DNA from: Deltaproteobacteria bacterium
GTDB taxonomy: Bacteria > Desulfobacterota > GWC2-55-46 > JAJCZF01
Length of the DNA stretch: 64,000 nt
Reading direction: 5' to 3'
Assembly (NCBI GenBank): GCA_029262535.1
Contig: JAJCZF010000083.1
Coordinates: 37,094-101,093, forward strand
Shown: piece by piece, positions 23,640-63,286 of the stretch
Numbering within the stretch: position 1 is the stretch's first letter
How the letters are laid out: each line of letters starts with the position of its first letter
The notes under the pieces: model-generated
Told to the model about the DNA's origin: nothing
Seen by the model: the letters and a program-made list of their open reading frames with translations, nothing else
Database searches by the model: none
Translations under genes and position numbers: made by a program

Positions 23640-25673
23640 ATGTATAAGGCGAAGACGAATAATAAAATCAAGAGTCCATTGTCCGCAATAGAACTCTTAG
23701 AAAGCAGGGTTGCGTCTATAACGGCGTTATGGGCCGTCTTGGTTCCGGCCATCCTCTTGCTCTCTACCCTCGCCCTGACATCGCAGGTAAATGCCGCGCT
23801 TCCCCCTATCGACTCAAGAGACGTATATATTCACAAAAGACTCTACCTGCGGCTTGATTATGAGACTGAAAATATAAAGAACACGTACGAGAATAATAAT
23901 GATACCAATTCCTACACCTCGACCAACTTCACACAGACATACGATTTTAACTTTTCAGGCAACGCATGGGACCCGCGGTTTATTGTATACGATGCAAAAA
24001 TTATATATAGAAACCGCAATTTCTCATACGACAATAATGATAGTGCCAATAATAGCTGGTTCTACTCCTTCAGGACGGTCTTGCTCAGGAAGTTCAGATA
24101 CCCGCTAACACTGCTTGTGGAAAAGTCTATCGACAAAAACGAAAGTTCCACAAAGTCTACCGAGTATATAAGAAACCGGTACATGTTACGCTGGTTTCTT
24201 CGTTTCAGGACCCTGCCTGTCACCAAAATCACCATTCAGAGGGTCACAAATATATATGGCCCAAATACCGTTACAAGTATGACATACGACTTATATATGA
24301 CAAAAGACTACGGACCCACAAAAAATAGTTTTTCCCTGTCGCATTCCACTGGAGAATCTAACAAGGCTACGACTGTTTCATTCACAAATGTGACTAAGAT
24401 TTCACATAGAACCTCGTTCTCCATGAATGCGGTAAAATCATATAGCTTTAGAGGCTCAGAGAAAGATCATGATGGTACAGGTCTTTCTCTGGACCTGAAT
24501 TCTAAACCCAGCAGATTTTTCGGTCAATCCCATTATTACAGTTTTTATAGAGCCGTTGATGAGTACGGTACTACTACAGGCAATAACTATAGCGGTTCCC
24601 TCTCTTATACACCGTCCGAGAGGTACACTCTATCCACTACACTGAACTATTTCGAGGACAGCACACGCTCATCCACAAACAACTCAGAAGACGAGAGGCT
24701 TTCATCAGGCACTTTCTTTAATTATACCATCTCGGAGGATCTGGTTTTTTTCCAAAACATCAACCTAAGCACCTCACAGTCAAGACAACTTCAATCTGCC
24801 AGCAATGAAAACAAGTTTACTTCTTTTAATACAGACAGCGGACTGAACTATCGAAAACGACTTGGTTGGGCAAGCTTTAGCTCTTCATACGGTATGGGCT
24901 ACTTTTTCACAAAGTCCTCTCCCAGCGAACTTACATACTCAGGAATAAGTAACAGACTTAACCTCTCTCTCGGAGGGATAAACGCAAGGCTTTTTAATAT
25001 TTCCACCGGGCTTGGGATGAGTCGCCAGGACAGCCTCTCCATTGCCGGATGGAGCCAAAACGTCAACGCTAATATAAGCGCCAATAGCCGCTTTCTCAGA
25101 AAATATCTTTCTCTTGGCACTGGCTACTCTACTTCAAGAACTTGGGATTTCAACCCGGCACGGGACAGTCATAGCCAAGGCTACAGCATCATATTGTCAA
25201 CAAATATCATTAAAAGAGGCACTCTTTCATCATCATATAAACGGATCGATTCGTGGGACTTTATCAGTGGTGACAAGCGCAGTGAAAACTTTGCTGTCAC
25301 TGCCAGCTACAATGCAGTAATACTACAAGGAAAACTCACTCTACGTGCCAGAATGCGAAACACTAAACACACATTCAAAGGCGGTAATACAGACTACCTT
25401 AATTACAATATAAACGCCAAGTACAGGCGCCCTCTTCCTCTCGGCCTGAAGTGGACTACCACAGCCGCATATGGTAAAGGAGAAGACCTCGTTAACTCAT
25501 ACTCAAACAGCAACGCCACGTTAACCAATAATCTTTACTACCAGCTTCGCGCATGGGGCCTCACCGCCGAACACCGCTATCGCTTACAGACGCTCACCAA
25601 CGGGATAACACAGAGCGAAAGCAGGATAATGTTTAAGGCCACACGCACCATCTTTCGTCAATTCTACCGATAA
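23640..25673 (+). CDS. Putative outer-membrane beta-barrel protein (N/S/T/Y-rich, unknown family)
   Basis: 677 aa with an N-terminal signal-like segment ending QVNA. It has pervasive alternating hydrophobic/polar short strands rich in Y, S, T, N. The gene is visibly more AT-rich than its neighbours. Confidence 0.5.
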   Translation: MYKAKTNNKIKSPLSAIELLESRVASITALWAVLVPAILLLSTLALTSQVNAALPPIDSRDVYIHKRLYLRLDYETENIKNTYENNNDTNSYTSTNFTQTYDFNFSGNAWDPRFIVYDAKIIYRNRNFSYDNNDSANNSWFYSFRTVLLRKFRYPLTLLVEKSIDKNESSTKSTEYIRNRYMLRWFLRFRTLPVTKITIQRVTNIYGPNTVTSMTYDLYMTKDYGPTKNSFSLSHSTGESNKATTVSFTNVTKISHRTSFSMNAVKSYSFRGSEKDHDGTGLSLDLNSKPSRFFGQSHYYSFYRAVDEYGTTTGNNYSGSLSYTPSERYTLSTTLNYFEDSTRSSTNNSEDERLSSGTFFNYTISEDLVFFQNINLSTSQSRQLQSASNENKFTSFNTDSGLNYRKRLGWASFSSSYGMGYFFTKSSPSELTYSGISNRLNLSLGGINARLFNISTGLGMSRQDSLSIAGWSQNVNANISANSRFLRKYLSLGTGYSTSRTWDFNPARDSHSQGYSIILSTNIIKRGTLSSSYKRIDSWDFISGDKRSENFAVTASYNAVILQGKLTLRARMRNTKHTFKGGNTDYLNYNINAKYRRPLPLGLKWTTTAAYGKGEDLVNSYSNSNATLTNNLYYQLRAWGLTAEHRYRLQTLTNGITQSESRIMFKATRTIFRQFYR

Positions 25674-25727: not shown

Positions 25728-27920
25728 CTAACGTATTTCGAGGCTTTGCAACAGATTTTTTGCGTCAGGATAACCGGGCAATATGACAAGAGCCTTATTC
25801 AGTTCACTTGCGGCGGCGGACCTGTCGCCTGCCTCTATATATACAAGCGCCAGATTATAATGCGTTTCAGCAATCATCGGGTCTGCGGCAATAGCGCTTA
25901 AGTATGCGGATATCGCTTCTTCGACCCTTCCGGTGGAGTGATATAACCATGCAAGATTAAAACTGTAATCGTGATTTTCCGGGGCGATCCTTGCAGCCTC
26001 GGCAAAGTGGCTTATAGCGCCTTCAACGTCACCGTTCTCATTATAGATCAAGGCCAACTTAGAGTGCGCAGGGGCATGGCCGGGGAAAGAGATTAAGAGC
26101 TTTTTATATTGAGCGATTGCCCTGGCGGTCTCGCCCGAGACCGCCAGAACCTGAGCAAGCGCGAAGCTGGCTTCGACATGATCCGGGTCGATACGAAGCG
26201 CCTCTTCAAAACCGGATATGGCCCGCCCGTAGTGCTTTAATTCAAAACTTAAAGAAGCGAGATTATAGGTTATCTCTAAACTACCGGGTTTTAATCTGAC
26301 TGCCTCGGCAAGGTGTATGGAGGCCTTTTGAAGCTCACCGCTCTGCATGTAGATATTGGCCAGGTTGTTATGGGCCTCTGCCTTCTCCGGATTGAAAGAT
26401 AGCGCCGCCATGTAATTCTCCATTGCCGCCCTTCTATCTCCGCCTATATAATATGCCCTGCCTAGATTAACATAAGCGGAGCTGTAGTTGGTTTTCAAGC
26501 TCAGGGCCTCTTTATAATGATCTATCGCCGCGTTGATATTTGCTTCCGCCTCATAGGCCAGGCCAAGATTATTATGGGCCTCGGCAAGGGCCGGCGACTT
26601 ACGAGCCGTATCACTCCATAGGGCAAGCTCGGAGCTCCATATCTCGTTCCTTTTATAAGAAGATAGAGCCAACACAATAAGCACAGAGAAGAAAACGACC
26701 CATGCGAGACGCACTCTCTTCTCATTGCCAAGATAGACCACAAGCGCGCTAAAGGCGGCCCCGACCGCTATAAACGGGCCGACACTCGGCAGGTATAACC
26801 TGTGCTCGAATATCACATGCTTTATCGGTATGACCGAACTCTCCACCCCAAGGGTCACAAAGAACCAGAAGACTCCAAAGGCGACAAGCTGACCGTATGG
26901 TCCGTATAGCTCACGACTCACCCTTGAACGTATGAAAAGATATAACGCGCTTGCGGCAATAGAGAGAAGAAAGACGAGAGAGAGTAGCGGCCCCGCCGCG
27001 GCAAGCGACTTATAGTGCGGATAGTCGTAGAGCAGGTTCTGTCCGGACGGCCATACCAGCAGCCTTAGGTAAGTCACAATCACGCGAAACTGAGTAAAGA
27101 GATACTCGGAACTAGAGAGCGTAAGCAGCTCGTCCATCTGCGCCTTCTTTACGACAAGGGCCGCGCCGCTTATACCGGCTCCGGCCCCACTACCCGCCAC
27201 CCCCGCTCCGCTTTCCGCCAATAGCGTAAGCGGTATTATCAGGAGAGATAATAGAAAAGGTATAACCCGGACCGCCGACCCTTTAAAACTTCCTTCGGCT
27301 CGAATAAAGGCGAACTCGATAAAGAGAATAAGTATTGGCAGGGTAAAGGCTATCTCCTTAGTCTTCTGTGCCAGTAGACAGCTTATAAGAGATAAAACGT
27401 AAAAAAACCACTCGCGGCCAGTGGACCGCGTAAGGCGAGCCTTCAAATATAGAACAATCGAGAGGAGGTAAAAGAAGGCCGCAAGGGAGGTAAAACGCTG
27501 CGTAATATAATTTACGGCCTGCGTCTCCACAGGGTGGGCTATAAAGAGCAACGCCACAACAAAGGCCGCGCCATGCCGGGTCCTCGTGGAGAGCTCTTGA
27601 TTTTCTGCAAAGAGCGAAGTCCTGAAAAGGAGCAACACTAGAGAGTATATAAGGGCTGCGTTTAAGAGATGAATCGTTAGGTTAGTAAGCTTAAAGGCTA
27701 AAGGGTCGTAACCAAAGGCAGCATAGTTGAGCGCAAAGCTCAAGAGGCCCAGGTACCTTGTGCCCGAGATATCAATAAAGTTAGAAAGATCCCTAATGGG
27801 CGGGTTATCCAATATATAGAGGGTGTCGTCAAAGACAAAGGGGCCTCCCGTGGCCCCGGCGTATATGGCGATACCGAGCCCGAAGAGGATGAGCAGGTGA
27901 ATATAGGAGGTTTTAGACAT
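25728..27920 (-). CDS. TMTC-like polytopic membrane protein with C-terminal TPR repeats (paralogue of 16308-18269)
   Basis: 730 aa. FVFDDTLYILDNPPIRDL motif, multiple TM helices, and at least 8 TPR units (AHNNLGLAY, AYVNLGRAY, AHNNLANIY, ...). Confidence 0.75.
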   Translation of the reverse strand: MSKTSYIHLLILFGLGIAIYAGATGGPFVFDDTLYILDNPPIRDLSNFIDISGTRYLGLLSFALNYAAFGYDPLAFKLTNLTIHLLNAALIYSLVLLLFRTSLFAENQELSTRTRHGAAFVVALLFIAHPVETQAVNYITQRFTSLAAFFYLLSIVLYLKARLTRSTGREWFFYVLSLISCLLAQKTKEIAFTLPILILFIEFAFIRAEGSFKGSAVRVIPFLLSLLIIPLTLLAESGAGVAGSGAGAGISGAALVVKKAQMDELLTLSSSEYLFTQFRVIVTYLRLLVWPSGQNLLYDYPHYKSLAAAGPLLSLVFLLSIAASALYLFIRSRVSRELYGPYGQLVAFGVFWFFVTLGVESSVIPIKHVIFEHRLYLPSVGPFIAVGAAFSALVVYLGNEKRVRLAWVVFFSVLIVLALSSYKRNEIWSSELALWSDTARKSPALAEAHNNLGLAYEAEANINAAIDHYKEALSLKTNYSSAYVNLGRAYYIGGDRRAAMENYMAALSFNPEKAEAHNNLANIYMQSGELQKASIHLAEAVRLKPGSLEITYNLASLSFELKHYGRAISGFEEALRIDPDHVEASFALAQVLAVSGETARAIAQYKKLLISFPGHAPAHSKLALIYNENGDVEGAISHFAEAARIAPENHDYSFNLAWLYHSTGRVEEAISAYLSAIAADPMIAETHYNLALVYIEAGDRSAAASELNKALVILPGYPDAKNLLQSLEIR

Positions 27921-28242
27921 TACGAGATAATTATGCCTCTTTATCGGCTTTGAAAAAACCTTTATAGCCGGTGAGTTTTCATAAGAAGCGCAGGGTCAAA
28001 AGGGCGCGCCGTATAAGACTAAAATTTATCATAAAATTCCAAACCTGTCTGCATTCAATATGTGTTAGAGGCGTAAGTTACAGCTGTAGCTCACGGCTAC
28101 AGACGAAAAAAGGCGGCCTTGCTCACGCCATTCACACTATAGAATCTTTTAGATCATCCACTGAGAGCAAGAAGCAGAGATTTAGGCGATTTTAAGAAAG
28201 CATCTTCTTGATTTATAATGCATTTTACTATAAGCTTATAAG

Positions 28243-30978
28243 ATGCTCGATGGCTATGGAAAAGAAAGGCTCGCCCTCTTCGGCCCTCTTCTACGGAAGC
28301 GACCGCTGCTTCTAAGCGGTAACCCGTGGACGGTGGAGCCGGCAAAGTTTCGCTTTAAGCTCGGCGAGACATTTGCCGAACTAAAGGTCCCCTACCACCT
28401 TGGCAAAGAGGACGAGCAGTGTATCGAACGCGCCATACAGGGCCTATTAGGCCTTCTCAAGGAACGCCACGAAAAGGCCGTCGGCGCGTCCATGCTCGAC
28501 CAGCAAGACGACCAGCAGCCAGACTTCCAGAAGAAGCCGACACTCTCCTTAAAAGGACCCGGCGCAAAGACCGAATCCGAAAACGAGCCGCTGCCGGAGC
28601 GCACCTATCGCACCAATATCTTTCCCGAAGGTTCCGCGGAGAAGTTGCTCGTTACGAAGATGATCACGACGACCCCGCTCATCGATACTTCCATACTTAA
28701 GATCTGGCTCGACCCTAACGGCTCCGGCAAGAAGTTCTTCGACTGGGTTTTGAAGCTGATGGAAAAGGCCCTTGTCGAAGAGGCCACACACGGCGAAGGA
28801 GAGATGACGGCCTATCTCGCGCTCATGGCCATACTGAACTCGATCAAGAAAAAGAAGGAGTGCATAAAGGGCTTTTGGATAAAGGGTGTTTCATACGAAC
28901 GTCTTGACATATCAACCGGTTACGCCCTGCACCAGACCGTAAAGACAGCCATAGAGACCTTATTTACGCAGATCAAGGCGCAAAGCGGCATAAAGACCGC
29001 CCCGGCAACCGAGACCCTCTTAAAGTCAGCCATCGCGCCCCATGCCTTTCTCCTCATTCCATCCAACCTGCTATCGAGTTCGCTCAATCCATACTGGCTT
29101 AGAAACGATGTCTCCGAGATCCTCTCGCCCATTCTCGGAGAAGTAACAAGCTGGCCGGACGACCTCAAAGCCCTTAATAGAAAAGTTTCCGACGCGGTTA
29201 ATTCGAATGCGGAGTTACGCGACAGACTCGAATCGATGTACTTCGCAAACGGACTGCGCGAACGCATAATAGAATACCTCATGGAGTTCGATGTAACGGG
29301 AGGGGCCGACTACACGACCTTCTACAACCTCTATAAAGAAGACCGCCAGAGACACCTCAAGGACGGACGCGCCATTACCTCGCTGATGGATCAGGTCAAT
29401 ACACTACTTAAGAGGTTCGAGCGCGACCCGAAGAGAACGGAGAAGCTCAAAGAGCTTCTATCCTTTATAAACTCTTTAAAGGGCTGCCTGGTAGAAAAAA
29501 AAGTAGATAGCAGTCGGTTTATAGAGGCATCTATTCCGCGAATCGTTGAGAGTTTCATAACCCTAAAGCTCGACGCTCATGTAGATCGTTTTGTAAACGC
29601 GTCGAGTGGTACTATGCTCGACCGCCGACTCAAGTACTCGGCCGACCTGCTCGTGGACGAGTTCAAAAACGGTCGCCTTTATCGCTTTGCCACCGACTCG
29701 CGTCCCATACTAAAGGCCCTTGCCATCGAAAAAGAGGGTCAGCTCATGGTGGACATGAAGGACTTTACAAAAAAGACTCTCAAGTTCAAAGAGATCGCAA
29801 TGTCCGAGTTTATGAAGGACCATTACTACGACCCCATTCTCGTCGCCGCGAAAAAGTTCAGCGCCGCGGCCGGCCTGCACGGGGGCGGTCAGGGCATCAC
29901 CTTAAAGAACCTGCCGGGCGACGCCGCCATATTCTCAGGCGGCACGACCAACCTCATTGAACTCGCAAAAGAGATTCGTCTCATCACGCGACGCTACCGT
30001 GAAGAGATCAAGAAAAAGTTCGTGCCCATGCTCGATAAACATATAGAGAACTTTCGCAAAAAATACCAGGTAGAAAAAGACCGCCAATCAAAAGACGCGC
30101 CCGACCTCGAAGAAAGTCTCATCGCGCTCTCGGACGAGGAGGATCTCATCACCTCGGTTTCGCGCGACGAGCTTGAGGCCGATATCACCGAAGACCTTGA
30201 GTGCGGCCTCTTTATCTCATACGGCACAAAGGCCGAGACGATGATCATCGACGCCAAGGAAGGTTTCTCAAACGATATTAAGGTCGCAATCGGAGAAAAA
30301 ATTAATGAAGCCGCGCGCGGCACGGCGCGTAACGCGGCAATCTTCGCCAAGATCGAAAACCGTTACGAACGCGAACGCGCGGCACGAAGGACAAAGGAAC
30401 TCAAATATCCCTTCGATGTATATATCGACAAGATCTATACCATAAAGATACCGCTAGGGCTTGAAGAGTCGGTTGAAGAAGAGATCGACGACCGCGCAAA
30501 GGCCGACCACTCAGACATAGTGCGCACCGTTAGCGAAGAATACCAGAACGACCTTGAGAAATTACGTCTCGGCATGCCGGTATCTTCTTTAAAGGTGCTC
30601 GACGTCACCACCGATATATACAACCGCGGCGAGGCCATAAGCCATGATGCCTTTAACGCATATATGATCGAGACCAAGGCCCGCAAGATCTATTTTAAGA
30701 AAAATATAATGGCCAAGGAACTGCACGAATCGATAAGAGAGAACTACTTCCTGCCGAGCGATACCATAGAGTTATGGATCGGAGCCGAACTAAAAGAAGG
30801 CTCGCGCCAGATAGAGATATTCCACCGCGCCGGCGAGATATCCTTCAAAGGCTTCGAGGCCTCCCCCCCGACCGTAGTATATGAGATACTGGACCCCGAA
30901 GGCGACTTCTTCAAAGACCTCATAAAACACCACTACACCGCGTGGATCGAAGACGCCAGGAGAGAGCAGGGGCACTAA
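28243..30978 (+). CDS. Large orphan protein with central class III nucleotidyl-cyclase-like motifs
   Basis: 911-aa uninterrupted ORF with no SD. Motifs LMVDMKDFT (aa 501-509), LPGDAAIF (aa 557-564), GLFISYG and VAIGEKINEAAR (aa 681-692) follow the order and spacing of cyclase-homology-domain signatures. The rest is unrecognised. Confidence 0.6.
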   Translation: MLDGYGKERLALFGPLLRKRPLLLSGNPWTVEPAKFRFKLGETFAELKVPYHLGKEDEQCIERAIQGLLGLLKERHEKAVGASMLDQQDDQQPDFQKKPTLSLKGPGAKTESENEPLPERTYRTNIFPEGSAEKLLVTKMITTTPLIDTSILKIWLDPNGSGKKFFDWVLKLMEKALVEEATHGEGEMTAYLALMAILNSIKKKKECIKGFWIKGVSYERLDISTGYALHQTVKTAIETLFTQIKAQSGIKTAPATETLLKSAIAPHAFLLIPSNLLSSSLNPYWLRNDVSEILSPILGEVTSWPDDLKALNRKVSDAVNSNAELRDRLESMYFANGLRERIIEYLMEFDVTGGADYTTFYNLYKEDRQRHLKDGRAITSLMDQVNTLLKRFERDPKRTEKLKELLSFINSLKGCLVEKKVDSSRFIEASIPRIVESFITLKLDAHVDRFVNASSGTMLDRRLKYSADLLVDEFKNGRLYRFATDSRPILKALAIEKEGQLMVDMKDFTKKTLKFKEIAMSEFMKDHYYDPILVAAKKFSAAAGLHGGGQGITLKNLPGDAAIFSGGTTNLIELAKEIRLITRRYREEIKKKFVPMLDKHIENFRKKYQVEKDRQSKDAPDLEESLIALSDEEDLITSVSRDELEADITEDLECGLFISYGTKAETMIIDAKEGFSNDIKVAIGEKINEAARGTARNAAIFAKIENRYERERAARRTKELKYPFDVYIDKIYTIKIPLGLEESVEEEIDDRAKADHSDIVRTVSEEYQNDLEKLRLGMPVSSLKVLDVTTDIYNRGEAISHDAFNAYMIETKARKIYFKKNIMAKELHESIRENYFLPSDTIELWIGAELKEGSRQIEIFHRAGEISFKGFEASPPTVVYEILDPEGDFFKDLIKHHYTAWIEDARREQGH

Positions 30979-31121
30979 GTTTTATTAGCACTCGCCCTGC
31001 GGCCTGACGGACATGCCACCATACCCTAAAGAATCAAAGCATCCTTGACCACCAAAAGAACGTTGGTCTCCCCTTCGACACCTTAATGTATTTTTTTCTT
31101 TTTCATTTTTAATATTATGAG

Positions 31122-31138
31122 TGTGTGCTACGCACACA
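31122..31138. repeat. Palindrome related to REP core (inverted order)
   Basis: TGTGTGC-tac-GCACACA. Confidence 0.5.
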
Positions 31139-31213
31139 ACTTCCTTAATGTGGCCCTCTAAAATATTTTCCGACTACTTCCATATTCACGTTGTGCAGAC
31201 ATCTAGCTATTAA

Positions 31214-31718
31214 CCGGGCTTCGCCGTAGTAAGGTTTTACAGATACGCCTGTTTTCTCTTGCCGTTTACCGGCGCTTTGTGAGGGGGTTACGCTCTCTGT
31301 TCCGTCGCAAAAGACCGCTCCTCCTTTTAAGGTCCGCTACACCCCCTCACGGGGTTGTTTTTTTCTGTAAGGATGAAGTCAATTATATAGAAGAAGATGC
31401 ACGATGCATTGGCTCCGCCCTCCTCCCTCACGTCCCGCGCCATTCCCCAGCGGTCGCTGGTCTCTTAGCCGGACACTGGTTAATTAAGATATTAGTGACA
31501 CTAAGCTTTGCGCCCCTAAAAAAGAAGCGCATAAAATCGGACCTGTCCGGCGCACCGCTCCTATTGAAACGGTCGGGATGCTCATAAACGCAAATGGCAC
31601 GCAACGCGGCACACAGGTGTGCTTTTATTTCGCGCAGAAGTTATATCGTAGACGGCTGGTTAGGCGTAACGCGACGAAATATCCTCCTTCTTCCTCAAGG
31701 TAAAAAGCATTTTAAAAA
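31214..31718 (+). repeat. Non-coding element, copy A (~505 nt, includes a 104-nt insertion and a REP unit)
   Basis: Aligns by eye block-for-block with 62829-63226. Shared blocks include ccgggcttcgccgt, gttacgctctctg.ttccgtcgcaaaag, a C-rich terminator hairpin, tgtaaggatga, atgcacgatgcattggctccgccctc, caccgctcctattg.aacggtcgggatgctca, a REP-like palindrome and cttcctcaaggt. Confidence 0.8.
31339..31365 (+). terminator. Terminator-like hairpin inside element copy A
   Basis: ACACCCCCTCACGGGGTTGT followed by T7. Confidence 0.5.
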
Positions 31719-31815
31719 AAAGCCGGTTCAAGGTTGTACCTTGAACCGGAACGTTAAAAGAGTATAGCGGTAAAGCATTTATTCTGAAGCATGGAGAAAT
31801 TGGAAACAACCGTTG

Positions 31816-31902
31816 TCATTCTGAGCAAAGCGAAGAATCTCAGGCTTACGAGTAATGCTATAGCTTGACAACCTGAGACCCTTCGCTTCGCTCAGGGTGA
31901 CA
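31816..31902. repeat. Long imperfect inverted repeat
   Basis: gtcattctgagcaaagcgaagaatctcagg ... cctgagacccttcgcttcgctcagggtgac. The arms are about 30 nt with a loop of about 27 nt. Confidence 0.7.
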
Positions 31903-31904
31903 AT

Positions 31905-31940
31905 TGTTAGGTTTCACTACGCTCTACCCAACCTACGAGG
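31905..31940. repeat. GTTGGGT/ACCCAACCTAC-family repeat
   Basis: ttgttaggtttcactacgctctacccaacctacgagg. Confidence 0.6.
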
Positions 31941-32023
31941 ACTAGTTTTTCATTGAAGTTTCTCTCAGAACCCTGACATAGGAACGTTCTGCCCCTATAT
32001 TTAAAGTATAATAATTAAGGAGA

Positions 32024-32251
32024 ATGAAAATGCCATATAATTTAGAAATTGATTGCAAAAAGCCAGGTAAGAATGACTTACCCGGACCTACATAGACTCA
32101 AATCTTCTCAAAAACCTGGACATCAGGCGAAACAGATGGGAGGAGATACATAACCCCGGAGTGTGCATTTCTACCTGAATTTAAATATGAAATTAAACGC
32201 CTAAAAAAGGAGTTAGACGACATATTAAGCAAAGCAAAGAAGCTCTACTAA
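32024..32251 (+). pseudogene. Small ORF interrupted by a single in-frame TAG (probable pseudogene)
   Basis: A TAAGGAGA RBS is followed by ATG at 32024/32030. The frame reads MKMPYNLEIDCKKPGKNDLPGPT-TAG(32093-32095)-TQIFSKTWTSGETDGRRYITPECAFLPEFKYEIKRLKKELDDILSKAKKLY-TAA(32249-32251). Confidence 0.4.
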
Positions 32252-32352
32252 CCGCAGTAGTTTCATATAATCCTACCTCTTCGACTGGCAGGATCAGTAC
32301 ATATTGACTTATCCTCCCCAATCCATTAGAATTTATCTAAGGGAGACTTATT

Positions 32353-32574
32353 ATGACACGAAAGTATACCGCAGTTATTACTCAGGAAGATAGATGGTAC
32401 GTAGCTCATTGCGTTGAGCTTGGGGTTGTTAGCCAGGGGCTAACACTCGAAAAGGCGCAGGCCAATCTTAAGGAAGCGGTTGAGCTATACATGGAAAGCT
32501 TCGACGTTGAAGACATGCCGGCTTCCACAGGCGAAGTACTCCTCTACCCGCTAGAGGTTGCCGCAGGTGGCTAG
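32353..32574 (+). CDS. hicB: HicB-family antitoxin
   Basis: 73 aa. YTAVITQEDRWYVAHCVELGVVSQG.TLEKA..NLKEA fits the HicB/UPF0150 fold signature. GGGAG RBS. It overlaps hicA. Confidence 0.8.
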   Translation: MTRKYTAVITQEDRWYVAHCVELGVVSQGLTLEKAQANLKEAVELYMESFDVEDMPASTGEVLLYPLEVAAGG

Positions 32575-32788
32575 ACTGCCCGTCCTCTCAGGGCAAAAGC
32601 TCGTAAAGGTTCTCATTAAAGAAGGTTTTGCAAAAGTTCGCCAGAAGGGCAGCCATGTCAGCCTCGAAAAAGGCCCTTTCAAAACGGTAGTCCCCTTACA
32701 CGACGAACTAGCCAAAGGAACCCTGATCGCCATACTAAAACAATGCGGCCTTGATAAGGAAGAACTGGAGAGGCTGATTAATCGGTAG
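32558..32788 (+). CDS. hicA: HicA-family mRNA interferase toxin
   Basis: LSGQKLVKVLIKEGFAKVRQKGSHVSL is the HicA signature. The true start may be GTG 32567 rather than TTG 32558. Confidence 0.8.
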   Translation: MPQVARLPVLSGQKLVKVLIKEGFAKVRQKGSHVSLEKGPFKTVVPLHDELAKGTLIAILKQCGLDKEELERLINR

Positions 32789-32790
32789 TC

Positions 32791-33642
32791 CTACAACACC
32801 TCATTCATAGCCCCCGACCTATACCCCTCAAGGTCCAAAGCAACATAAACAAAACCGCACTCTTTAACCCCTTTAACTACCGTCTCCCGCACCGTTTTAT
32901 CCAGGAACTTCTCTATCTCCTCCGCACCGACCTCTATTCGTGCTATGTCTCCGTGAAAGCGGACGCGGAGGTCGCGGAAGCCTAGCTCTCTTAGTAGCTT
33001 TTCGGCGCGGGCGATCTTGTCTACTCTCTCTTCAGTGATGCGGGTTCCGTAGGGGAATCTGGATGAGAGGCAGGCCATCTGCGGTTTGTCCCATGTAGGC
33101 AGACCCATTGAGCGCGATAGCTCACGTATCTCGGCCTTGGTCAGTTCGGCTTCGATTAACGGGCTGCGCACGCCAAGCTCTTTTGCCGCGGCGCTACCGG
33201 GGCGGTAGTCCTTTGTGTCGTCTAGGTTCGAGCCGTCGAGCACGTAGGCCGCGCCAACCTTCGCGGCCTCTTTCAGGCAGAGGGTGAAAAGCTCTTCCTT
33301 GCAATAGAAGCAACGCTTGTCGCTATTTTCCGCAAAGTTCTCTATCAAGAGTTCGTTAGAATCTATTATGATATGGGAGACAGAAAGTGAGGCGGCGAGC
33401 GCCTTTGCGCCTTCGAGTTCGCTTTCGAGGTAGGTCGGGCTTGTGGCGGTCAGGGCCGTAGCGCGTTCGCCCAGAGTATCGGCGGCGACCTTTAATAAAA
33501 AGCTTGAATCGACGCCGCCCGAAAAGGCCACGAGCACACTGCCCATATCTGCGAGTATAGACTTAAGGCTTTCAAGTTTTTTCAGGATTTCCTCAGAGGG
33601 GGTCTCCGTTGCCGTGCCCTCGCCTTTAGCGGCCCCTAACAC
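32791..33642 (-). CDS. larE: LarE-family PP-loop ATP-dependent sulfur transferase
   Basis: 283 aa. PP-loop AFSGGVDSS and the conserved Cys context MACLSSRFPYG. GTG start overlaps the upstream gene by 7 nt. Confidence 0.7.
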   Translation of the reverse strand: MLGAAKGEGTATETPSEEILKKLESLKSILADMGSVLVAFSGGVDSSFLLKVAADTLGERATALTATSPTYLESELEGAKALAASLSVSHIIIDSNELLIENFAENSDKRCFYCKEELFTLCLKEAAKVGAAYVLDGSNLDDTKDYRPGSAAAKELGVRSPLIEAELTKAEIRELSRSMGLPTWDKPQMACLSSRFPYGTRITEERVDKIARAEKLLRELGFRDLRVRFHGDIARIEVGAEEIEKFLDKTVRETVVKGVKECGFVYVALDLEGYRSGAMNEVL

Positions 33643-34661
33643 AGATTGTACTTCTTAAGCTCTTCTTCCGAGACGGTCTCGCTAACTGTAAAGTCGGCCT
33701 CGACGCCGTCGGTCGTGGAGCGGAGCGTGCCGCTCTCGCCGCCCTTTCCGGCTGAGTAACGCAAGAGAAGGCGACCTGCAAAGTCTGCGATGCCATTACC
33801 GGCGACATCATCATGTTGGCATACAATAGCCGACGGCCCGGTAAAGTCGAGCGGCTCGATAAGGCTATCGCCCGGCTGGATAAGTGTGCACAGGCGGTTG
33901 TTTTCAGTCTCGTCTCTGCCGACGACGACCTTTACGTCATTAAAACGGAAGTGGCGGCCCGTCTTTAAGAGCGCGAGATCCTTATTCGATACCTTTTCCT
34001 TATGCTCAAGCAGATCGCGGACCTTCTTTGAAAAGATCTTGTCGGTCAATAAACAACCGCCCGATGGACAGGGATAGTCGTTTAATTCCAGCTCTTCGGC
34101 GAGCGCGATCTGCGGCTTTCTGGAGCGGCCTTCTATGCTAAGCAGTTTCTCCCTGTCTACGAGCCCTTCTTTCTCGGCTATGGTCGGCTCAAGAATTTGT
34201 GCGCAGAGGGGACGAAGTATCAGCCCCTTGAGGCCGCTCTCTTCCTCTACGATGCGCATGGAGCGCGTGAGCTGGCTCATCGGCCTTTGCCCAAGCACCT
34301 CACCCGTTATAACGAATGACGCGCCGATCTCTTCCATATATTTCTTCGCCTCTTTGAACATAAATATACGGCAGTCCACGCAAGGGTTCATGCCCTTGCC
34401 GTGACCGAACTTCGGATTACGCACGAGGTCCATATATTCAGGCCCTTTTACGATCACCTTTATCGGGATGTCGTAATCCTCGGCAACGGCTGCCGCGGCG
34501 CCCTTACATCCCGCTCCGCCTTTATTCTTAGAACCGGCGTTACATGTACAAAAGGCCGAGGTGAAGTTAAGAGCTATCACCTCAATGCCCTGATCTATTA
34601 TCATCTTTACGGCCAGTGTCGAGTCTAGCCCGCCCGACAGAAGCGCTACTGCCTTAGTCAT
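33636..34661 (-). CDS. ThiI-like PP-loop ATP pyrophosphatase without THUMP domain (putative tRNA/cofactor thiolation enzyme)
   Basis: 341 aa. PP-loop LLSGGLDST, CVDCRIFMFK and TGEVLGQRPMSQ resemble the ThiI catalytic module. Extra Cys clusters are present. GGAGGA RBS. Confidence 0.65.
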   Translation of the reverse strand: MTKAVALLSGGLDSTLAVKMIIDQGIEVIALNFTSAFCTCNAGSKNKGGAGCKGAAAAVAEDYDIPIKVIVKGPEYMDLVRNPKFGHGKGMNPCVDCRIFMFKEAKKYMEEIGASFVITGEVLGQRPMSQLTRSMRIVEEESGLKGLILRPLCAQILEPTIAEKEGLVDREKLLSIEGRSRKPQIALAEELELNDYPCPSGGCLLTDKIFSKKVRDLLEHKEKVSNKDLALLKTGRHFRFNDVKVVVGRDETENNRLCTLIQPGDSLIEPLDFTGPSAIVCQHDDVAGNGIADFAGRLLLRYSAGKGGESGTLRSTTDGVEADFTVSETVSEEELKKYNLC

Positions 34662-35998: not shown

Positions 35999-36796
35999 AT
36001 GAGACTCACCTTCCTTGGCTGCGGCACTTCAACCGGTGTTCCGGTTATAGGATGTGACTGCCCTGTTTGTACCTCTACCGACCCTAAGAACGCGCGCACG
36101 CGCAGTTCCCTGCTCGTATCGATAGATTCTAAAGATCCCAGTCGTAATATCCCGCGTAATATTCTAATAGACACATCACCCGACTTTCGCACGCAGGCCA
36201 TCAGAGAAGGGTTGCGCCGCGTGGATGCCGTCCTATATACCCACTATCACGCAGACCACGTGCACGGCATAGACGACCTGCGTAGCTTCAACCGTATTCA
36301 AAACGAAGAGCCTATACCGTGTTACGGCACGACCGAGACCATGGACTCCATCACCTCCGCATTCGCTTATATATTCAGCACACCCGGAGCGAGAAACCAA
36401 CAACTCGGATGGAAACCCAACCTCACGGCAAATACCTTTGACTGCCCATTTGAGCTATTCGGTACGGATATAATCCCGGTTGAGATAAAACACGGACGCG
36501 CTACCGTCACGGGCTTTCGTATCGGTAATGGAGCATATCTCACCGACTGTAGCTCCATACCGGACGAATCTAAAGAGCTGCTTCACGGCCTCGACCTGCT
36601 CATACTAGGCGCCCTACGCAATAACCCGCACCCGGCCCACCTCTCCATACCCGAGGCCGTGGAGATCTCTGGGGAATTAAAGCCCAAACGAACTATACTT
36701 ACCCACATCGGACACAGTGTGGACAGCGCCAATCAAAGCCCTGTGCTACCGGAGGGCGTAGAGTACGCTTACGACGGACTTTCAATCGAACTCTAA
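35999..36796 (+). CDS. MBL-fold metallo-hydrolase (PhnP-like)
   Basis: 265 aa. N-terminal CxxC pair and HYHADHVHG (HxHxDH) motif. Confidence 0.8.
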   Translation: MRLTFLGCGTSTGVPVIGCDCPVCTSTDPKNARTRSSLLVSIDSKDPSRNIPRNILIDTSPDFRTQAIREGLRRVDAVLYTHYHADHVHGIDDLRSFNRIQNEEPIPCYGTTETMDSITSAFAYIFSTPGARNQQLGWKPNLTANTFDCPFELFGTDIIPVEIKHGRATVTGFRIGNGAYLTDCSSIPDESKELLHGLDLLILGALRNNPHPAHLSIPEAVEISGELKPKRTILTHIGHSVDSANQSPVLPEGVEYAYDGLSIEL

Positions 36797-40066: not shown

Positions 40067-41352
40067 AAGAGGTTATAACCTCTCTCGCCGTGCTCCGATA
40101 CGTCCAGTCCCATGACCTCTTCCTCTTCTGTAACGCGAAGCCCTACTACGGCCTTGACTATCATCAGTATCACAAAGGTCCCGACAGCGGCGAGCACGAT
40201 GGTCGCAACTACACTTACTATCTGAATCCAGAGCTGACCTACATTACCGAAGAAGGCGCCCTCGGCCCCGACAGATGCGAATAGGCCGGTCGCTATCGCG
40301 CCCCACATGCCGCCAATGCCGTGTATGCCGAATACGTCGAGCGAGTCGTCGTAGCCAAGCTTGGGTTTAAGGTAACTTACGGCAAAGTAACATATTCCGC
40401 CGCCTATCAGGCCCATGATAAGAGCCGATACCGGGCCGACGAAACCGGCAGCCGGGGTGATCGTCACAAGACCCGCAACCGCGCCGGATAAGGCGCCAAG
40501 CAGTGTTGGTTTGCCCCTGTGTATCCACTCGATGAATGTCCATGAGAGACCTGCCGCCGCCGCAGCGGTATTGGTCGTTACGAATGCGAGCGCCGCCGTG
40601 CCGTCTGCTGCAAGTGCGCTGCCCGCGTTGAAGCCGAACCAGCCGAACCATAGAAGGGCCGTTCCGAGCAGAGTGAGCGTCAGGTTATGCGGCTGCATGG
40701 CGTCTTTCGGGTAACCCTTGCGCTTGCCTATAACGATACAGGCGACGAGCGCCGATACGCCTGAGCTGATATGAACGACCGTGCCGCCTGCGAAATCCAG
40801 CGCGCCCATAGCCCCGATCCAGCCGCCGCCCCATACCCAGTGGCAGAGCGGATCGTATACAACAGTAGCCCAGAGGACCGAGAAGATTACAAATGCCGAA
40901 AACTTAATCCTCTCCGCGAAGGCGCCTGTTATGAGCGCGACCGTTATGATTGCGAACATGCCCTGAAACATCATAAAGATATAATGCGGTATTGTGCCGC
41001 TTGCTTCCATGCCCACACCGGTAAGGCCCACAAACGACAGGTTGCCTACGATACCACCGCCCGCGTCAGGGCCGAAAGCGAGCGAATAACCCCAGAGGAT
41101 CCACTGCACGCCGATTAGGCAGAGAATGAAAAAGCTATGCATCATCGTAGCCAGAACATTCTTACTCCTCGCCATGCCTGCGTAAAAGATACCGAGCCCC
41201 GGTATCATCAACATAACAAGGGCCGCGCAGATAAGGATAAATGCCGTATCGCCCGTATCTATGACCGCCTCTGCCTCAGCCGCCGACGCGATCCCAGTAA
41301 AGACAAATAATATAAGCGCAAAAAGCGCGCCGATAAATCCATATTTCTTCAT
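40063..41352 (-). CDS. amtB: Ammonium transporter (Amt family), copy 1
   Basis: DTGDTAFIL..ALVMLM.PGLG.FY.G and AGG.VVH motifs with 11 TM helices. ATG 41352 has an AGGAGA RBS; the track start at 41412 is an extension. Confidence 0.9.
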   Translation of the reverse strand: MKKYGFIGALFALILFVFTGIASAAEAEAVIDTGDTAFILICAALVMLMIPGLGIFYAGMARSKNVLATMMHSFFILCLIGVQWILWGYSLAFGPDAGGGIVGNLSFVGLTGVGMEASGTIPHYIFMMFQGMFAIITVALITGAFAERIKFSAFVIFSVLWATVVYDPLCHWVWGGGWIGAMGALDFAGGTVVHISSGVSALVACIVIGKRKGYPKDAMQPHNLTLTLLGTALLWFGWFGFNAGSALAADGTAALAFVTTNTAAAAAGLSWTFIEWIHRGKPTLLGALSGAVAGLVTITPAAGFVGPVSALIMGLIGGGICYFAVSYLKPKLGYDDSLDVFGIHGIGGMWGAIATGLFASVGAEGAFFGNVGQLWIQIVSVVATIVLAAVGTFVILMIVKAVVGLRVTEEEEVMGLDVSEHGERGYNLF

Positions 41353-42010: not shown

Positions 42011-43354
42011 CTAAAAGAGCTGGTAGCCGTTCTCTCCGTGTTGCGTGAGGTCGAGGCCGAGCACTTCGTCTTCTTCCGTCACTCTCAGTCCTACCAGAGC
42101 GTTTACTATCTTTAGTATTATATAGGTTCCAACCGCCGAAAAAACTATGGTCACGGCGACGGCTATGAACTGCTTCCATAGCTGTGACGGATCGCCGGTG
42201 AAGAGCCCCTTTGCGCCTATCGATGCAAAGAGCCCAATGGATAACGAGCCGATTATGCCGCCGATACCGTGTATGCCGAATACGTCGAGAGAGTCGTCAT
42301 ACTTGAGGTACGGTTTTAGGATCGTCACGGCGAAGTAACATACAAAGCCGCCGAGGAATCCTATTAGTATAGCCACGCCAGGCGTTACGAAACCGGATGC
42401 CGGGGTAATGGTTCCGAGCCCCGCGACCGCTCCCGATATCGCGCCGAGCACTGTCGGCTTGCCCCTGTGTTTCCACTCTATAAAGACCCAGGTAAGAGTG
42501 CCTACGGCAGCCGCGGTATTTGTCGTTACGAGCGCCATCGCCGCGTTTCCGTTCGCGCCGAGCGCGCTGCCCGCGTTAAAGCCGAACCACCCGAACCAGA
42601 GAAGCCCCATGCCTATTACGGTGAGGCCGAGGTTATGAGGCGGCATCGCAACCTTTGGAAATCCTCTTCTGCCTCCAACGACTATGGCCGCCACGAGGGC
42701 CGATACGCCGCATGAAATATGAACGACTATGCCGCCGGCAAAGTCTAAGGCGCCGAGCTTTCCGAGCCAGCCTCCTCCCCACACCCAGTGGCAGAGCGGG
42801 TCGTATATAAAAGTCGCCCAGAGAACGGCGAATATTACGACGGCTGAGAACTTAACCCTTTCGGCGATGGCCCCGGTAATGAGCGCTACCGTTATGATAG
42901 CGAACATACCCTGAAACATCATAAAGAGTATATGCGGTATGGTTCCGTACGGCTCTGTGCCCACGCCGCGAAGCCCTATGTAGTCGAGGCCTCCTATTAT
43001 ACCGCCGACATCCGAACCGAACGAAAGCGTATATCCGAAGAGTATCCACTGTACGCTTATGAGACATAATATAAAGAAGCTGTGCATCATGGTGCCGAGT
43101 ACATTCTTTTTTCTGGCCATACCCGCGTAAAAGATACCGAGCCCCGGAGTCATCAACATGACGAGCGCGGTAGATACGAGTATCCATGCCGTGTCGCCGG
43201 TGTCTATCGTCCCTCCATCGGAGGCAAGTGCCATACCCGACCTGCCAAGTGTAAATAATAGGACGATACCTACCGCTATAAAAAATCTGCGGGTCAGGCT
43301 GTGAGAAAAAAGGTCGTACTTATTAAGTCGAAGACCAAACGCGCCAAACTTCAT
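42011..43354 (-). CDS. amtB: Ammonium transporter (Amt family), copy 2
   Basis: 447 aa, a close paralogue of copy 1 (DTGDTAWIL..., shared C-terminus RVTEE.EV.GLD...HGE.GY.LF). AAGGAG RBS. Confidence 0.9.
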   Translation of the reverse strand: MKFGAFGLRLNKYDLFSHSLTRRFFIAVGIVLLFTLGRSGMALASDGGTIDTGDTAWILVSTALVMLMTPGLGIFYAGMARKKNVLGTMMHSFFILCLISVQWILFGYTLSFGSDVGGIIGGLDYIGLRGVGTEPYGTIPHILFMMFQGMFAIITVALITGAIAERVKFSAVVIFAVLWATFIYDPLCHWVWGGGWLGKLGALDFAGGIVVHISCGVSALVAAIVVGGRRGFPKVAMPPHNLGLTVIGMGLLWFGWFGFNAGSALGANGNAAMALVTTNTAAAVGTLTWVFIEWKHRGKPTVLGAISGAVAGLGTITPASGFVTPGVAILIGFLGGFVCYFAVTILKPYLKYDDSLDVFGIHGIGGIIGSLSIGLFASIGAKGLFTGDPSQLWKQFIAVAVTIVFSAVGTYIILKIVNALVGLRVTEEDEVLGLDLTQHGENGYQLF

Positions 43355-50914: not shown

Positions 50915-52213
50915 CTAGCGTTCAGTCACTTGTGCCTCTCTCAATACCGTCGCCGTCGCTCCGTGGCGGCTTAGGGTGGCGGCTTTTTGGGCGGTTAGTC
51001 CGTCTTTTGTCGTGGCGGTGATATCCGCGCCCAACTCTATCAGGTACTTTACTACCTCGCTATGTCCGCCGATGGCGGCGACGATCAGGGGGGTGGCGTA
51101 GTTGCGTTTTTCGCGAGGCTCCAGCTCCGCGCCCGACTTAACCAGTAGCTTTACGGTATCGAGCGCCCCGGTCTGGGCGGCTATCAAGATGGGTGTCGCA
51201 CCGCTAGCGGCCCTGTGGTTCAGATCCGCCCCGGCCTCTAATAATAAAGTCACGACCTCTATGCCCGCATCGCTTTGAGCCGCAAGTATAAGCGCGGTCG
51301 CGCCGTTCAGGGCTTCGGCTGAGTGATCGGCTCCGGCATTGAGCAGCAATCTAACCGTATCGCTATGAGCGCCAAGCGCCGCTACCATCAGGGCGGTGAC
51401 ATTGCTGGTCGATTTTTTATTCACATCCGCGCCGCGCTCCAGGAGCAGCTTTACTAAATCCGAATAACCGCCGGACGAGGTCAGTATCAGGATCGTCTCG
51501 CCAGTATCGGCGCGTGCCGTTATATCGGCCCCGGCCTTAATGAGCAACCGGACGCATTCGGCTCGGTCGTTCTGCGCCGCCAGTACGAGGGCCGTATCGT
51601 TATTTAAGGATTTAAGATCAAGCTCCGCGCCCTTTTCTATAAGAAGAGAAAGAACGCCTTCATGACCGTTTTGAGCGGCGACCATCAGCGGGGTCGCGCC
51701 GTTTGTCAGGCGAGGATTAAGCTCTGCGCCCGCATCGACAAGCGCCCTTACTATTGGATCAAAGCCGTTTTGCGAAGCCATGAAGAGCGGTGTCGTTCCC
51801 TTAAGAGAGGCGATATTCAGATCCGCGCCCGACTTGATAAGCAGCTTTACTATCTCCTTGTGACCGCTCTCAGCGGCCAGCGTCAGAGGCGTAATACCTT
51901 TAAAGGTCTTTATATCGACATCGGCCCCGGCCTCAAGCAGAAGCCTTACGATCTCAAGATGACCGCTCTGCGCGGCGATAACGAGCGGGTTCACGCCGCC
52001 CTCGTCCACGACATTAAGATCAACACCCGACTCTATAAGCGAGCGCGCCTCGTCGGTATCAGCCAGGGCAACGGCCCTGATGAGCGGATTGGTCAAGAGA
52101 TCACCGCCCTCTGCGGCAGGCTCTGACGAGCATGAAGAGATCAGAAGTGAGAGAACGCAGAGTAAGGCTGCTACCCGCCGGATTGACGGCGTCAATATTT
52201 TATAAGATTGCAT
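50915..52213 (-). CDS. Ankyrin-repeat lipoprotein (about 12 ANK repeats)
   Basis: 432 aa. Lipobox LLISSC. It has regular 33-aa repeats G.TPL..AA..GH.E.V.LL...GAD.N. Confidence 0.85.
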   Translation of the reverse strand: MQSYKILTPSIRRVAALLCVLSLLISSCSSEPAAEGGDLLTNPLIRAVALADTDEARSLIESGVDLNVVDEGGVNPLVIAAQSGHLEIVRLLLEAGADVDIKTFKGITPLTLAAESGHKEIVKLLIKSGADLNIASLKGTTPLFMASQNGFDPIVRALVDAGAELNPRLTNGATPLMVAAQNGHEGVLSLLIEKGAELDLKSLNNDTALVLAAQNDRAECVRLLIKAGADITARADTGETILILTSSGGYSDLVKLLLERGADVNKKSTSNVTALMVAALGAHSDTVRLLLNAGADHSAEALNGATALILAAQSDAGIEVVTLLLEAGADLNHRAASGATPILIAAQTGALDTVKLLVKSGAELEPREKRNYATPLIVAAIGGHSEVVKYLIELGADITATTKDGLTAQKAATLSRHGATATVLREAQVTER

Positions 52214-58651: not shown

Positions 58652-58659
58652 GGTGAGCC

Positions 58660-58998
58660 ATGTCATTTTTCACGGTTCTTAAGACCGAAATATCGAATAA
58701 GGATAATATGATCCTCGCCCTAAGATCTCTTGAAGAGTCGGGCGAGATACAGCGCCTCACCATCAACGAGGCAAAAGAGTCCATCGAAGTCGACCGCGAC
58801 GGCGACATCATGACGATTGAGAAGGAAAAGACCGGCACATACAATGTCGCAGGCAACAATACCGCCGTCGAACCCTTTTCAAAGAGACTCAAACAGATCT
58901 ACGCCTTGCAGACGATAAAGGAAAACCTGCCGCTCGACTTCGAGATATCGGAAGAGAGCGAGATAGCCGGAGAGATTCGGATTCTCCTAAAGGGATAA
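58660..58998 (+). CDS. DUF1257 (Ycf35)-like small protein
   Basis: 112 aa with GAGGTGAG RBS 8 nt after the upstream stop. The N-terminus MSFFTVLKTEISNKDNMILALRSLE resembles the remembered DUF1257 start MSHFTTIKT.I.D...L..AL.DLG. Confidence 0.65.
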   Translation: MSFFTVLKTEISNKDNMILALRSLEESGEIQRLTINEAKESIEVDRDGDIMTIEKEKTGTYNVAGNNTAVEPFSKRLKQIYALQTIKENLPLDFEISEESEIAGEIRILLKG

Positions 58999-58999
58999 T

Positions 59000-59200
59000 A
59001 TGGATAGAGAGATAAATATACGCATACTGCCGGACGGCAAGGTCGAAATCGACTCGACCGTCTTTAACGACTGCACAGAAGTCGCAAACCACCTCTCGAA
59101 ACATATCGGACAGGTCGAGTCCTTTCGGGTCAAAGAGGAACACGACCACTCCGACTCGAAGCTCGACAAGGGGGTAAAGGTGGATAAAAGCGATGGCTGA
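59000..59200 (+). CDS. DUF2997-like small protein
   Basis: 66 aa starting 1 nt after the upstream stop. INIRILPDGKVEIDS..F.DCTEV...L...IG resembles the remembered DUF2997 pattern. Confidence 0.55.
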   Translation: MDREINIRILPDGKVEIDSTVFNDCTEVANHLSKHIGQVESFRVKEEHDHSDSKLDKGVKVDKSDG

Positions 59201-59774: not shown

Positions 59775-59814
59775 AGTAGCCGGATTTCAAATTGAAAAAT
59801 TAAAGCGGCTCTAG

Positions 59815-59834: not shown

Positions 59835-59857
59835 CCAGGCAACGCCGATAGCTAAAA

Positions 59858-63226: not shown

Positions 63227-63286
63227 TCAATAACTCTTAATAAAGTGGGCTGTGCGAACATAGTATTCGCACAACCCACACATTAA

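Follow-up and report, generated by a model that had tools for sequence, protein, structure and literature searches.

Class III nucleotidyl cyclases are the main source of cyclic-nucleotide messengers, and the catalogue of these enzymes rests on one Pfam model. Bacterial representatives (PF00211) include CyaB of Pseudomonas aeruginosa (3r5g), CyaC of Spirulina (1wc0) and Cya2 of Synechocystis (2w01). Here we describe a protein of 911 amino acids (aa), encoded at positions 28243-30978 (+) of a 64,000-nucleotide (nt) stretch of deltaproteobacterial DNA (contig JAJCZF010000083.1 of assembly GCA_029262535.1; the whole stretch is hereafter called the window), whose catalytic region can be assigned to the class III fold and homology group with high confidence. 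The full reading that we favour, that of an active class III cyclase working in ordinary cellular signalling, is given a probability of about 0.6.

In the Pycsar systems a cyclase is accompanied by an adjacent cyclic-nucleotide receptor/effector, PycTM or PycTIR, and the PycC enzymes are head-to-tail homodimers that bear the catalytic motifs of class III (PMC11224242). The DUF2652 cyclase-like proteins, 180-385 aa in length, are found in Actinobacteria, Bacteroidetes and Proteobacteria and carry K/E or E/K as specificity residues (Ramakrishnan et al. 2016, PMC4886424).

The window protein is a large cytoplasmic multidomain protein with a very divergent class III-type palm domain, in which all classes of catalytic residue are conserved. 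It has in common with CyaB, CyaC and Cya2 the fold and the order of its elements, the first metal Asp in F-x-D-x-x-[GD]-F-T, the second metal Asp in a G-D hairpin, the beta4 strand G-x-x-I-x-x-G, the helix G-x-x-[VI]-N-x-A-x-R and the end [VF]-K-G-F...[VI]-Y-[EQ]-[VI]. It differs from them in lying below Pfam detection, in the presence of two insertions (0-170 aa and ~120 aa), in an Asn/Val pair instead of Lys/Asp or Glu/Cys, in a novel helical N-terminal module of 465 aa and in a family-specific strand, G-R-L-Y-R-F. With PycC of Pycsar (7r65, 8jsz) it shares a class III-type core and specificity residues of non-purine type, and with the GGDEF cyclases (PleD, 5m3c) the palm superfold and the metal Asp at the end of beta1. 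Identity with DUF2652 (PF10851) was ruled out by the absence of a Pfam match of any kind and by the length of 911 aa. We regard the family as a deep branch that has escaped annotation, marked by its split catalytic domain, by novel accessory modules and by specificity residues of an unusual kind.

Conservation of the catalytic motifs

Four cyclase signatures, LMVDMKDFT, LPGDAAIF, GLFISYG and VAIGEKINEAAR, had been pointed out in the original prediction, and all of them were located in the open reading frame (ORF) in the order then given (Table 1). Their conservation was determined with an alignment of 71 family members of 17-47% identity. The two metal-Asp positions, on whose conservation the original prediction had staked its case, are retained, D504 in 71/71 and D560 in 66/71 members. 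Also kept are the glycines G559 (68/71), G566 (71/71), G655 (70/71), G661 (70/71) and G693 (71/71), the alpha4 residues N688 (63/71), R692 (64/71) and R696 (69/71), and the tail residues G864 (70/71), F868 (64/71), K/R869 (64/71), G870 (65/71) and E881 (70/71), the proposed catalytic residues being among the few near-invariant positions. The mean fraction of the commonest residue was 0.49-0.52 in the three cyclase segments described below, as against 0.25-0.34 in the N-terminal module and both insertions.

Profile and fold comparison with class III cyclases

For the comparison of profiles, the catalytic domains of Cya2 (2w01), CyaB (3r5g) and CyaC (1wc0), retrieved from the PDB with an approximate consensus as query, were used as template sequences. 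The family domain profile was aligned to them by hhalign with P 7.4e-4 when the first insert was kept, P 3.5e-5 when it was excised and P 1.4e-5 with an improved template, and segment 1 alone gave P 2.2e-5 against class III domains. Within the confident local alignment, D504 fell on the first metal Asp at the end of beta1, G559-D560 on the second metal Asp in the beta2-beta3 hairpin and G-L-F-I-S-Y-G on beta4. A greedier, extended alignment (low mact) placed V-A-I-G-E-K-I-N-E-A-A-R on v-I-G-x-x-V-N-L-A-x-R, and so brought into register the two transition-state residues of alpha4, the Asn and, four positions on, the Arg. The real score was 36.1, compared with 12.6 +/- 2.2 (maximum 19.9) for 200 column shuffles and 14.7 for the reversed alignment. 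Because the key residues are conserved in the 71 homologues and the real score exceeds all 200 shuffles, the resemblance of the motifs is beyond chance.

The fold was compared using two AlphaFold2 (AF2) models. The full-length model of the window protein had a predicted local distance difference test score (pLDDT) of 73 and was poor in the catalytic region (pLDDT 37-86); its PDB search placed class III cyclases on top without a significant E value (AC9, E 0.07; Cya2 2w01, probability 1.00, TMt 0.45), and the search of a viral structure library gave no significant match. The second model was of the domain only, taken from a short-insert homologue, P0104 (213 aa, 8 aligned sequences, mean pLDDT 61). 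Class III cyclases filled the list of PDB matches of this model from rank 1 to rank 43; 16 had E<1e-3, and the best was CyaB 3r5g (E 2.3e-5, probability 1.00, TM 0.43-0.46). The class III order of elements is present in both models, the better-matched one being that of the homologue at pLDDT 61. Similarity to cyclases is therefore present at the level of both profile (hhalign) and fold search, and the cyclase-homology core proposed from the letters of the window alone is supported by these two comparisons together with the conservation described above.

A different palm-domain nucleotidyltransferase, either a GGDEF-like dinucleotide cyclase or a maker of linear or oligomeric nucleotides, was also considered, since GGDEF domains, too, have a palm fold and a D...GD hairpin, and since more than one chemistry would be compatible with the unusual specificity residues. 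The family profile indeed matched real GGDEF domains weakly (P 0.015), in the beta1 region only. However, the class III match (P ~1e-5) is far better than this, and better also than that of class III against GGDEF domains (P 0.0017), and the weakness of the GGDEF score relative to the class III score therefore places the family with class III within the palm superfamily. The window protein is without the GG(D/E)EF motif, its hairpin being L-[LP]-G-D-A; no GGDEF protein was found among the top 50 fold matches of the P0104 domain model; and its Asn-x3-Arg helix and K-G hairpin are those of class III. Identity as a GGDEF diguanylate cyclase was rejected on the motif, the P value and the fold list, and an origin elsewhere among palm enzymes is quite improbable.

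Domain organization

The cyclase fold is predicted to be discontinuous, consisting of three segments (aa 490-592, 646-735 and 856-890) interrupted by two insertions (Table 1). An insert of ~60 aa splitting the domain had been noted from the sequence; it comprises 59 residues (592-650) and was modelled by AF2 as a helical hairpin, with helices at 568-618 and 623-651. The acidic nature ascribed to this insert holds for its second half, which is strongly acidic (13 D/E versus 1 K/R in residues 620-652). Among the members of the family the length of insertion 1 ranges from 0 to 170 aa and that of the whole domain region from 213 to 384 aa. Insertion 2 carries a family-specific motif, Y793-N794-x-G796-x-A-x-S800 (nt 30619-30642), in which N794 is conserved in 69/71, G796 in 71/71 and S800 in 65/71 members.

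The ~215 C-terminal residues, originally said to match nothing recognizable, do not form a separate domain of their own, because residues 856-890 correspond to the beta7-beta8 end of the cyclase in the splice test, in the alignment of the tail and in conservation. When residues 856-890 were spliced after residue 735, the hhalign alignment lengthened from ~125 to ~170 columns and kept its register up to the final residue of CyaB, an extension that none of three control segments produced at the same place. The tail alone aligned to exactly residues 166-187 of CyaB (P 0.004). Residues 863-884 of the window protein read AGEISFKGFEASPPTVVYEILD, the end of CyaB reads KGQIAVKGFSRPVQIYQVVD, and the CyaB counterpart used for the comparison of segment 3 is GQIAVKGFSRPVQIYQVV. 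The phosphate-binding Lys of the beta7-beta8 K-G hairpin is found in F-K-G-F-E (aa 868-872), on moderate evidence from a template of 1-2 sequences. With residues 856-890 as the canonical cyclase end, the three segments would together make up one split fold. A second, degenerate cyclase domain in the C-terminal part (insertion 2 plus tail), forming an intramolecular pseudo-heterodimer, was tried as a candidate and dropped at the sequence level (hhalign P 0.33).

The N-terminal region of 465 residues gave no match in Pfam, NCBIfam or PDB sequences and no significant fold match, and is presumed to be a regulatory or sensor module.

Base specificity and catalytic competence

According to the hhalign register, the base-specifying Lys/Glu position is occupied by Asn556 (N in 57/71, S in 8/71) and the one that lies seven residues N-terminal to the catalytic Asn by Val681 (V in 59/71, I in 8/71). 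Because this pair is of neither the ATP type (Lys/Asp) nor the GTP type (Glu/Cys-Ser-Gly), the substrate is not predictable, and it may be a non-canonical nucleotide. The pair defines specificity and not membership of class III, and pyrimidine cyclases also deviate from the canonical pair (PMC11224242).

These residues bear at the same time on the question of whether the domain is an enzyme at all. A catalytically inactive pseudo-cyclase, in which the domain binds a nucleotide or acts as a dimerization or regulatory scaffold while the real function resides in the N-terminal module or insertion 2, would be in agreement with the non-canonical Asn556/Val681, with the interruption of the fold by two large insertions, with the divergence beyond the reach of the Pfam model and with the near-invariance of N794-x-G796...S800 in insertion 2, which points to selection outside the canonical site as well. 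Degenerate cyclase domains such as mammalian C2 and subunits of soluble guanylyl cyclase, however, typically lose part of the catalytic residue set, whereas here the two metal Asp, the Asn, the Arg and the tail Lys/Arg are all kept across 17-47% identity. The loss of activity is considered unlikely.

For an active class III cyclase, the mechanism may be outlined by analogy with the characterized enzymes. The protein would most likely act as a head-to-tail dimer, as in other class III cyclases. D504 and D560 would serve as ligands of two Mg2+/Mn2+ ions, and the ribose and the triphosphate would be oriented by N688 and R692 together with K869 of the beta7-beta8 hairpin. A nucleoside triphosphate would then be converted to a 3',5'-cyclic nucleotide and pyrophosphate, and the N-terminal helical module, the insertions or both could gate the cyclase activity.

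Several observations weigh against the assignment as an active class III cyclase. HMMER searches with the window protein returned no match at E<=10 from Pfam, NCBIfam, PADLOC or the sequences of the PDB, a PDB search with a 12-sequence family profile gave nothing, and none of 55 family members matches Pfam at E<=0.01 (0/55). Seven short-insert domains searched against Pfam gave no cyclase-model match, the sole sub-threshold match being DUF5975 for one member. There is accordingly no HMMER-level link to Guanylate_cyc (PF00211) for the window protein, for the short-insert members or for any of the 55 members, and the curated thresholds of PF00211 or an NCBIfam model are not reached. The short-insert profile retrieves CyaB from the PDB only at E 0.85, ranked under spurious transaldolase matches. 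The cyclase template profile consists of only 3-4 sequences and was used without a secondary-structure term, and the Asn/Arg helix and the tail join the alignment only in its greedy form, columns being gained but not score. Both AF2 models are of modest confidence at the catalytic region (pLDDT 37-86; mean 61), and the stronger fold result belongs to P0104, which is ~22% identical to the window protein, and not to the window protein itself. The canonical base-specifying pair, as described above, is absent.

The negative HMMER searches and the modest model confidence would also be expected if the motifs resembled those of cyclases by chance and the region had some other fold. That explanation is largely refuted by the shuffle controls, the spliced-segment controls, the 43 consecutive class III fold matches and the invariant catalytic residues, and is barely credible.

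Distribution of the family

The description of the protein as an orphan was wrong. A word-indexed search detected 11 full-length homologues with 37-47% identity, and the same database queried with the 71-sequence profile returned the same 11 proteins with none added. An exhaustive scan of cluster representatives (50% clustering) yielded 212 relatives at E<=0.001, 110 of them even reaching E<=1e-30, and a scan of species-representative genomes yielded 75 loci. The members are mostly 800-1040 aa in length. The hosts of the 75 loci are nearly all uncultured Thermodesulfobacteriota/'Deltaproteobacteria' known from metagenome-assembled genomes, with a few Myxococcota and Oligoflexia and not a single cultured isolate, and the gene is present in single copy in most genomes of the clade. 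The family is a vertically inherited, stand-alone, single-copy chromosomal gene of uncultured Thermodesulfobacteriota and some Myxococcota. No publication describing it was found in a literature search of partial coverage, so that its absence from the literature is not proven.

Gene and genomic context

As originally claimed, the ORF runs uninterrupted for 2.7 kb and is flanked upstream by a divergent gene, which codes for a tetratricopeptide repeat (TPR) membrane protein (25728-27920, -). The start codon is supported because M1, Y5 and R9 are kept among the full-length homologues (37-47% identity). The G+C content of the gene (0.51) is similar to that of its flanks. A candidate promoter, found as a pattern match only, is listed in Table 1.

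In all of the ~60 loci examined the gene stands alone on its strand. The genes met most often beside it, in a set of 58 loci, are one for a PP-loop ATPase, oriented tail-to-tail, and a ThiI-like/NFACT-R_2 gene that overlaps the ATPase gene. The PP-loop ATPase was identified as LarE (TIGR00268, 328 bits versus a cutoff of 150), and larE is tail-to-tail with the gene in 39 of the 54 loci that have enough flank; no lar operon context was seen around the larE/ThiI-like pair. Other recurrent neighbours are an M50 peptidase, a PhnP-like metallo-beta-lactamase (MBL)-fold hydrolase (in 27 of the 43 loci whose flank is long enough) and the divergent TPR membrane protein. In L078, the locus of a 29%-identical relative, larE is still tail-to-tail and the MBL-fold orthologue is directly adjoining and divergent. 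The hydrolase scores 342 bits, just below the 360 of the NCBIfam model 'GPMC system MBL fold metallohydrolase', and it faintly resembles the model of a cyclic-nucleotide phosphodiesterase; no papers on a 'GPMC system' were retrieved from the literature. The hydrolase may be a partner that breaks down a cyclic product.

The distant short-insert branch (P0104, P0094) has different neighbours, which are again of housekeeping type. In both loci of this branch a large Peptidase_C11 (clostripain-type) protein is encoded downstream on the same strand (L082, 11133-15110; L083, 11397-14144).

A role in conflict with phages had been suggested in the original prediction, on the ground that divergent cyclases serve several anti-phage systems and that a hicBA pair lies nearby. 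Such a Pycsar-type or related cyclase would produce a cyclic nucleotide on infection and thereby activate an abortive-infection effector. Among the fold matches of P0104 there are indeed a Pycsar enzyme, the cUMP synthase 7r65, and the uridylate cyclase 8jsz, the specificity residues are of non-purine type, and the hicBA module is present 1.4 kb downstream (hicB, 32353-32574; hicA, 32558-32788; HicA E 2.4e-16). The two Pycsar-related enzymes, however, stand at ranks 31 and 42 and are outranked by canonical adenylyl/guanylyl cyclases. The search of the window protein against PADLOC gave 0 families, and in ~60 loci no cyclic-nucleotide-binding, TIR, transmembrane-effector or other defence-type partner was adjacent or co-oriented, so that neither the effector neighbour (PycTM or PycTIR) that defines Pycsar (PMC11224242) nor a defence-model match or mobile context is found, and Pycsar membership was rejected. 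Unlike the Pycsar cyclases, the protein is also ~4x larger, with extra modules, and it is encoded in conserved housekeeping synteny as a single-copy gene of flank-like G+C.

The hicBA pair itself is not a property of the family. Of the 39 loci, 36 have between -46 and +332 nt separating the gene from larE, and the 1,813 nt of the window is the largest distance of all. Because most of the other gaps are short, the 1.8-kb stretch at 30979-32790, consisting of non-coding DNA and hicBA, is an insertion private to this genome, and the accessory context once read from it falls away. An anti-phage function is regarded as highly improbable, and the product of the putative cyclase most likely serves ordinary cellular signalling rather than phage defence.

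Table 1. Positions of the gene elements, predicted domains and linked genes. Nucleotide positions are those of the window unless L078 is indicated.
Feature	Position (nt)	Strand	Remarks
Candidate sigma-70-like promoter	28192..28219	+	TTAAGA-16-TATAAT, 24 nt 5' of ATG; consensus scan, 10/12 matches; pattern match only, no functional evidence
Target gene	28243-30978	+	911 aa + stop codon
N-terminal region, aa 1-465	28243..29637	+	Mostly alpha-helical; AF2 pLDDT 80-93 over aa 120-460; conservation 0.28-0.30
Strand G-R-L-Y-R-F, aa 477-482	29671..29688	+	Family-specific, just before beta1; G477 71/71, Y480 70/71; beta-strand in homologue model
Cyclase segment 1, aa 490-592	29710..30018	+	beta1-alpha1-alpha2-beta2-beta3-alpha3; D504 (DMKDFT), G559-D560 (PGDAA), Asn556
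Motif LMVDMKDFT	29743-29769	+	
Motif LPGDAAIF	29911-29934	+	
Insertion 1, aa 593-645	30019..30177	+	Helical hairpin extending alpha3, acidic second arm; conservation 0.25, lowest
Cyclase segment 2, aa 646-735	30178..30447	+	beta4 (GLFISYG), beta5 arm, alpha4 with Asn688 and Arg692 (IGEKINEAARGT), beta6 (PFDVYI), Val681
Motif GLFISYG	30205-30225	+	
Motif VAIGEKINEAAR	30283-30318	+	
Insertion 2, aa 736-855	30448..30807	+	alpha/beta subdomain, ~120 aa; AF2 pLDDT ~80-89
Cyclase segment 3, aa 856-890	30808..30912	+	beta7-beta8 hairpin, F-K-G-F-E (nt 30844-30858) and V-Y-E-I-L, phosphate-binding Lys
C-terminal helix, aa 891-911	30913..30975	+	Helix 888-910 in AF2 model; conservation 0.30
larE and ThiI/MnmA-like PP-loop gene	32791-34661	-	Two-gene operon, 7-nt overlap, convergent with target; C-terminal NFACT-R_2 RNA-binding domain in the second
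MBL-fold hydrolase	35999-36796	+	PhnP-like, E 7e-30
MBL-fold hydrolase, L078	5154-5912	-	Orthologue in L078

Other features of the window

The region downstream of the gene had been called repeat-rich junk. It contains no tandem and almost no internal repeats; what remains of that description is one copy of a dispersed element of ~440 nt and one copy of a palindrome. The ~440-nt element is non-coding and occurs twice in the window at ~80% identity (31281-31720 and 62890-63230), each copy just 3' of a large ORF, the first with ~100 extra nt at 31448-31550 and followed by a strong terminator-like hairpin (31749-31723, minus strand). It matches no Rfam family, and a small RNA, an element like the miniature inverted-repeat transposable elements or a regulatory region are candidates for its nature. 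The palindrome, CACACAGGTGTG, often followed by TTATTTCGCG, is present in 6 copies in the window (<=1 mismatch) as against 0.07 expected, at 7991, 8637, 8650, 10436, 11156 and 31610, all apparently intergenic; it could be an element of the repetitive extragenic palindromic type or the binding site of a regulator. A sub-threshold match to the Rfam family mir-960, an animal microRNA precursor, at 31814-31901 (+) (32.5 bits versus a gathering score of 100) is almost certainly merely a stable hairpin in the inserted non-coding stretch.

The ORF of 933 aa beside the second copy of the ~440-nt element was considered as a paralogue of the window protein and rejected (BLASTP E 2.4). It is an Hsp70/actin-fold protein, with the ATPase domain at ~550-790 preceded by ~550 N-terminal residues without assignment, and forms a three-gene run at 56510-62659 (+) with an FtsH-like AAA/M41 protease (713 aa) and a protein of the radical S-adenosylmethionine activase type (193 aa, Fer4_12).

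An ORF of 677 aa at 23640-25673 (+), rich in N/S/T/Y and with a signal-like N-terminus, lies between FGE-sulfatase-domain genes. It has no match in Pfam or NCBIfam, is retained upstream of the target region in 15 loci and may code for an outer-membrane beta-barrel. Elsewhere in the window, ~520-nt stretches of 73-75% identity (40742-41262 and 42690-43207) lie within neighbouring minus-strand ORFs of 449 and 447 aa, which are probably tandem paralogues; in the syntenic loci L001 and L004, two ammonium-transporter genes lie on either side of a P-II gene. At 51020-52000, inside the ORF 50915-52213 (-), repeats of 31-37 nt that belong to several families recur at multiples of 99 nt; this spacing equals a protein repeat of 33 residues, the length of an ankyrin repeat.

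Implications

A more far-reaching reading joins the observations made above. The family would be a deep, hitherto unrecognized class III branch making a messenger other than cyclic AMP (cAMP) or cyclic GMP (cGMP); N794-x-G796...S800 of insertion 2 together with Asn556/Val681 would form a new base pocket or stand in for part of the partner protomer; and the enzyme would belong to a core, non-defence pathway of uncultured Thermodesulfobacteriota, with possible turnover of its product by the linked PhnP-like MBL-fold hydrolase. Taken as a whole, this chain is tentative and rather doubtful.

At least 212 sequence clusters, representing a near-universal single-copy gene in a lineage of uncultured relatives of sulfate reducers, have been entirely missed by the Pfam model. 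The family also shows that two large insertions can be accommodated in the cyclase fold, of which one separates beta6 from the beta7-beta8 hairpin. The locus carries a warning as well: proximity to a toxin-antitoxin pair does not by itself turn a divergent cyclase into a defence gene. Should the enzyme prove active, the sequence space and architecture of class III would widen, the environmental Thermodesulfobacteriota would gain a candidate signalling enzyme and the Asn/Val pair might lead to a messenger that is neither cAMP nor cGMP.

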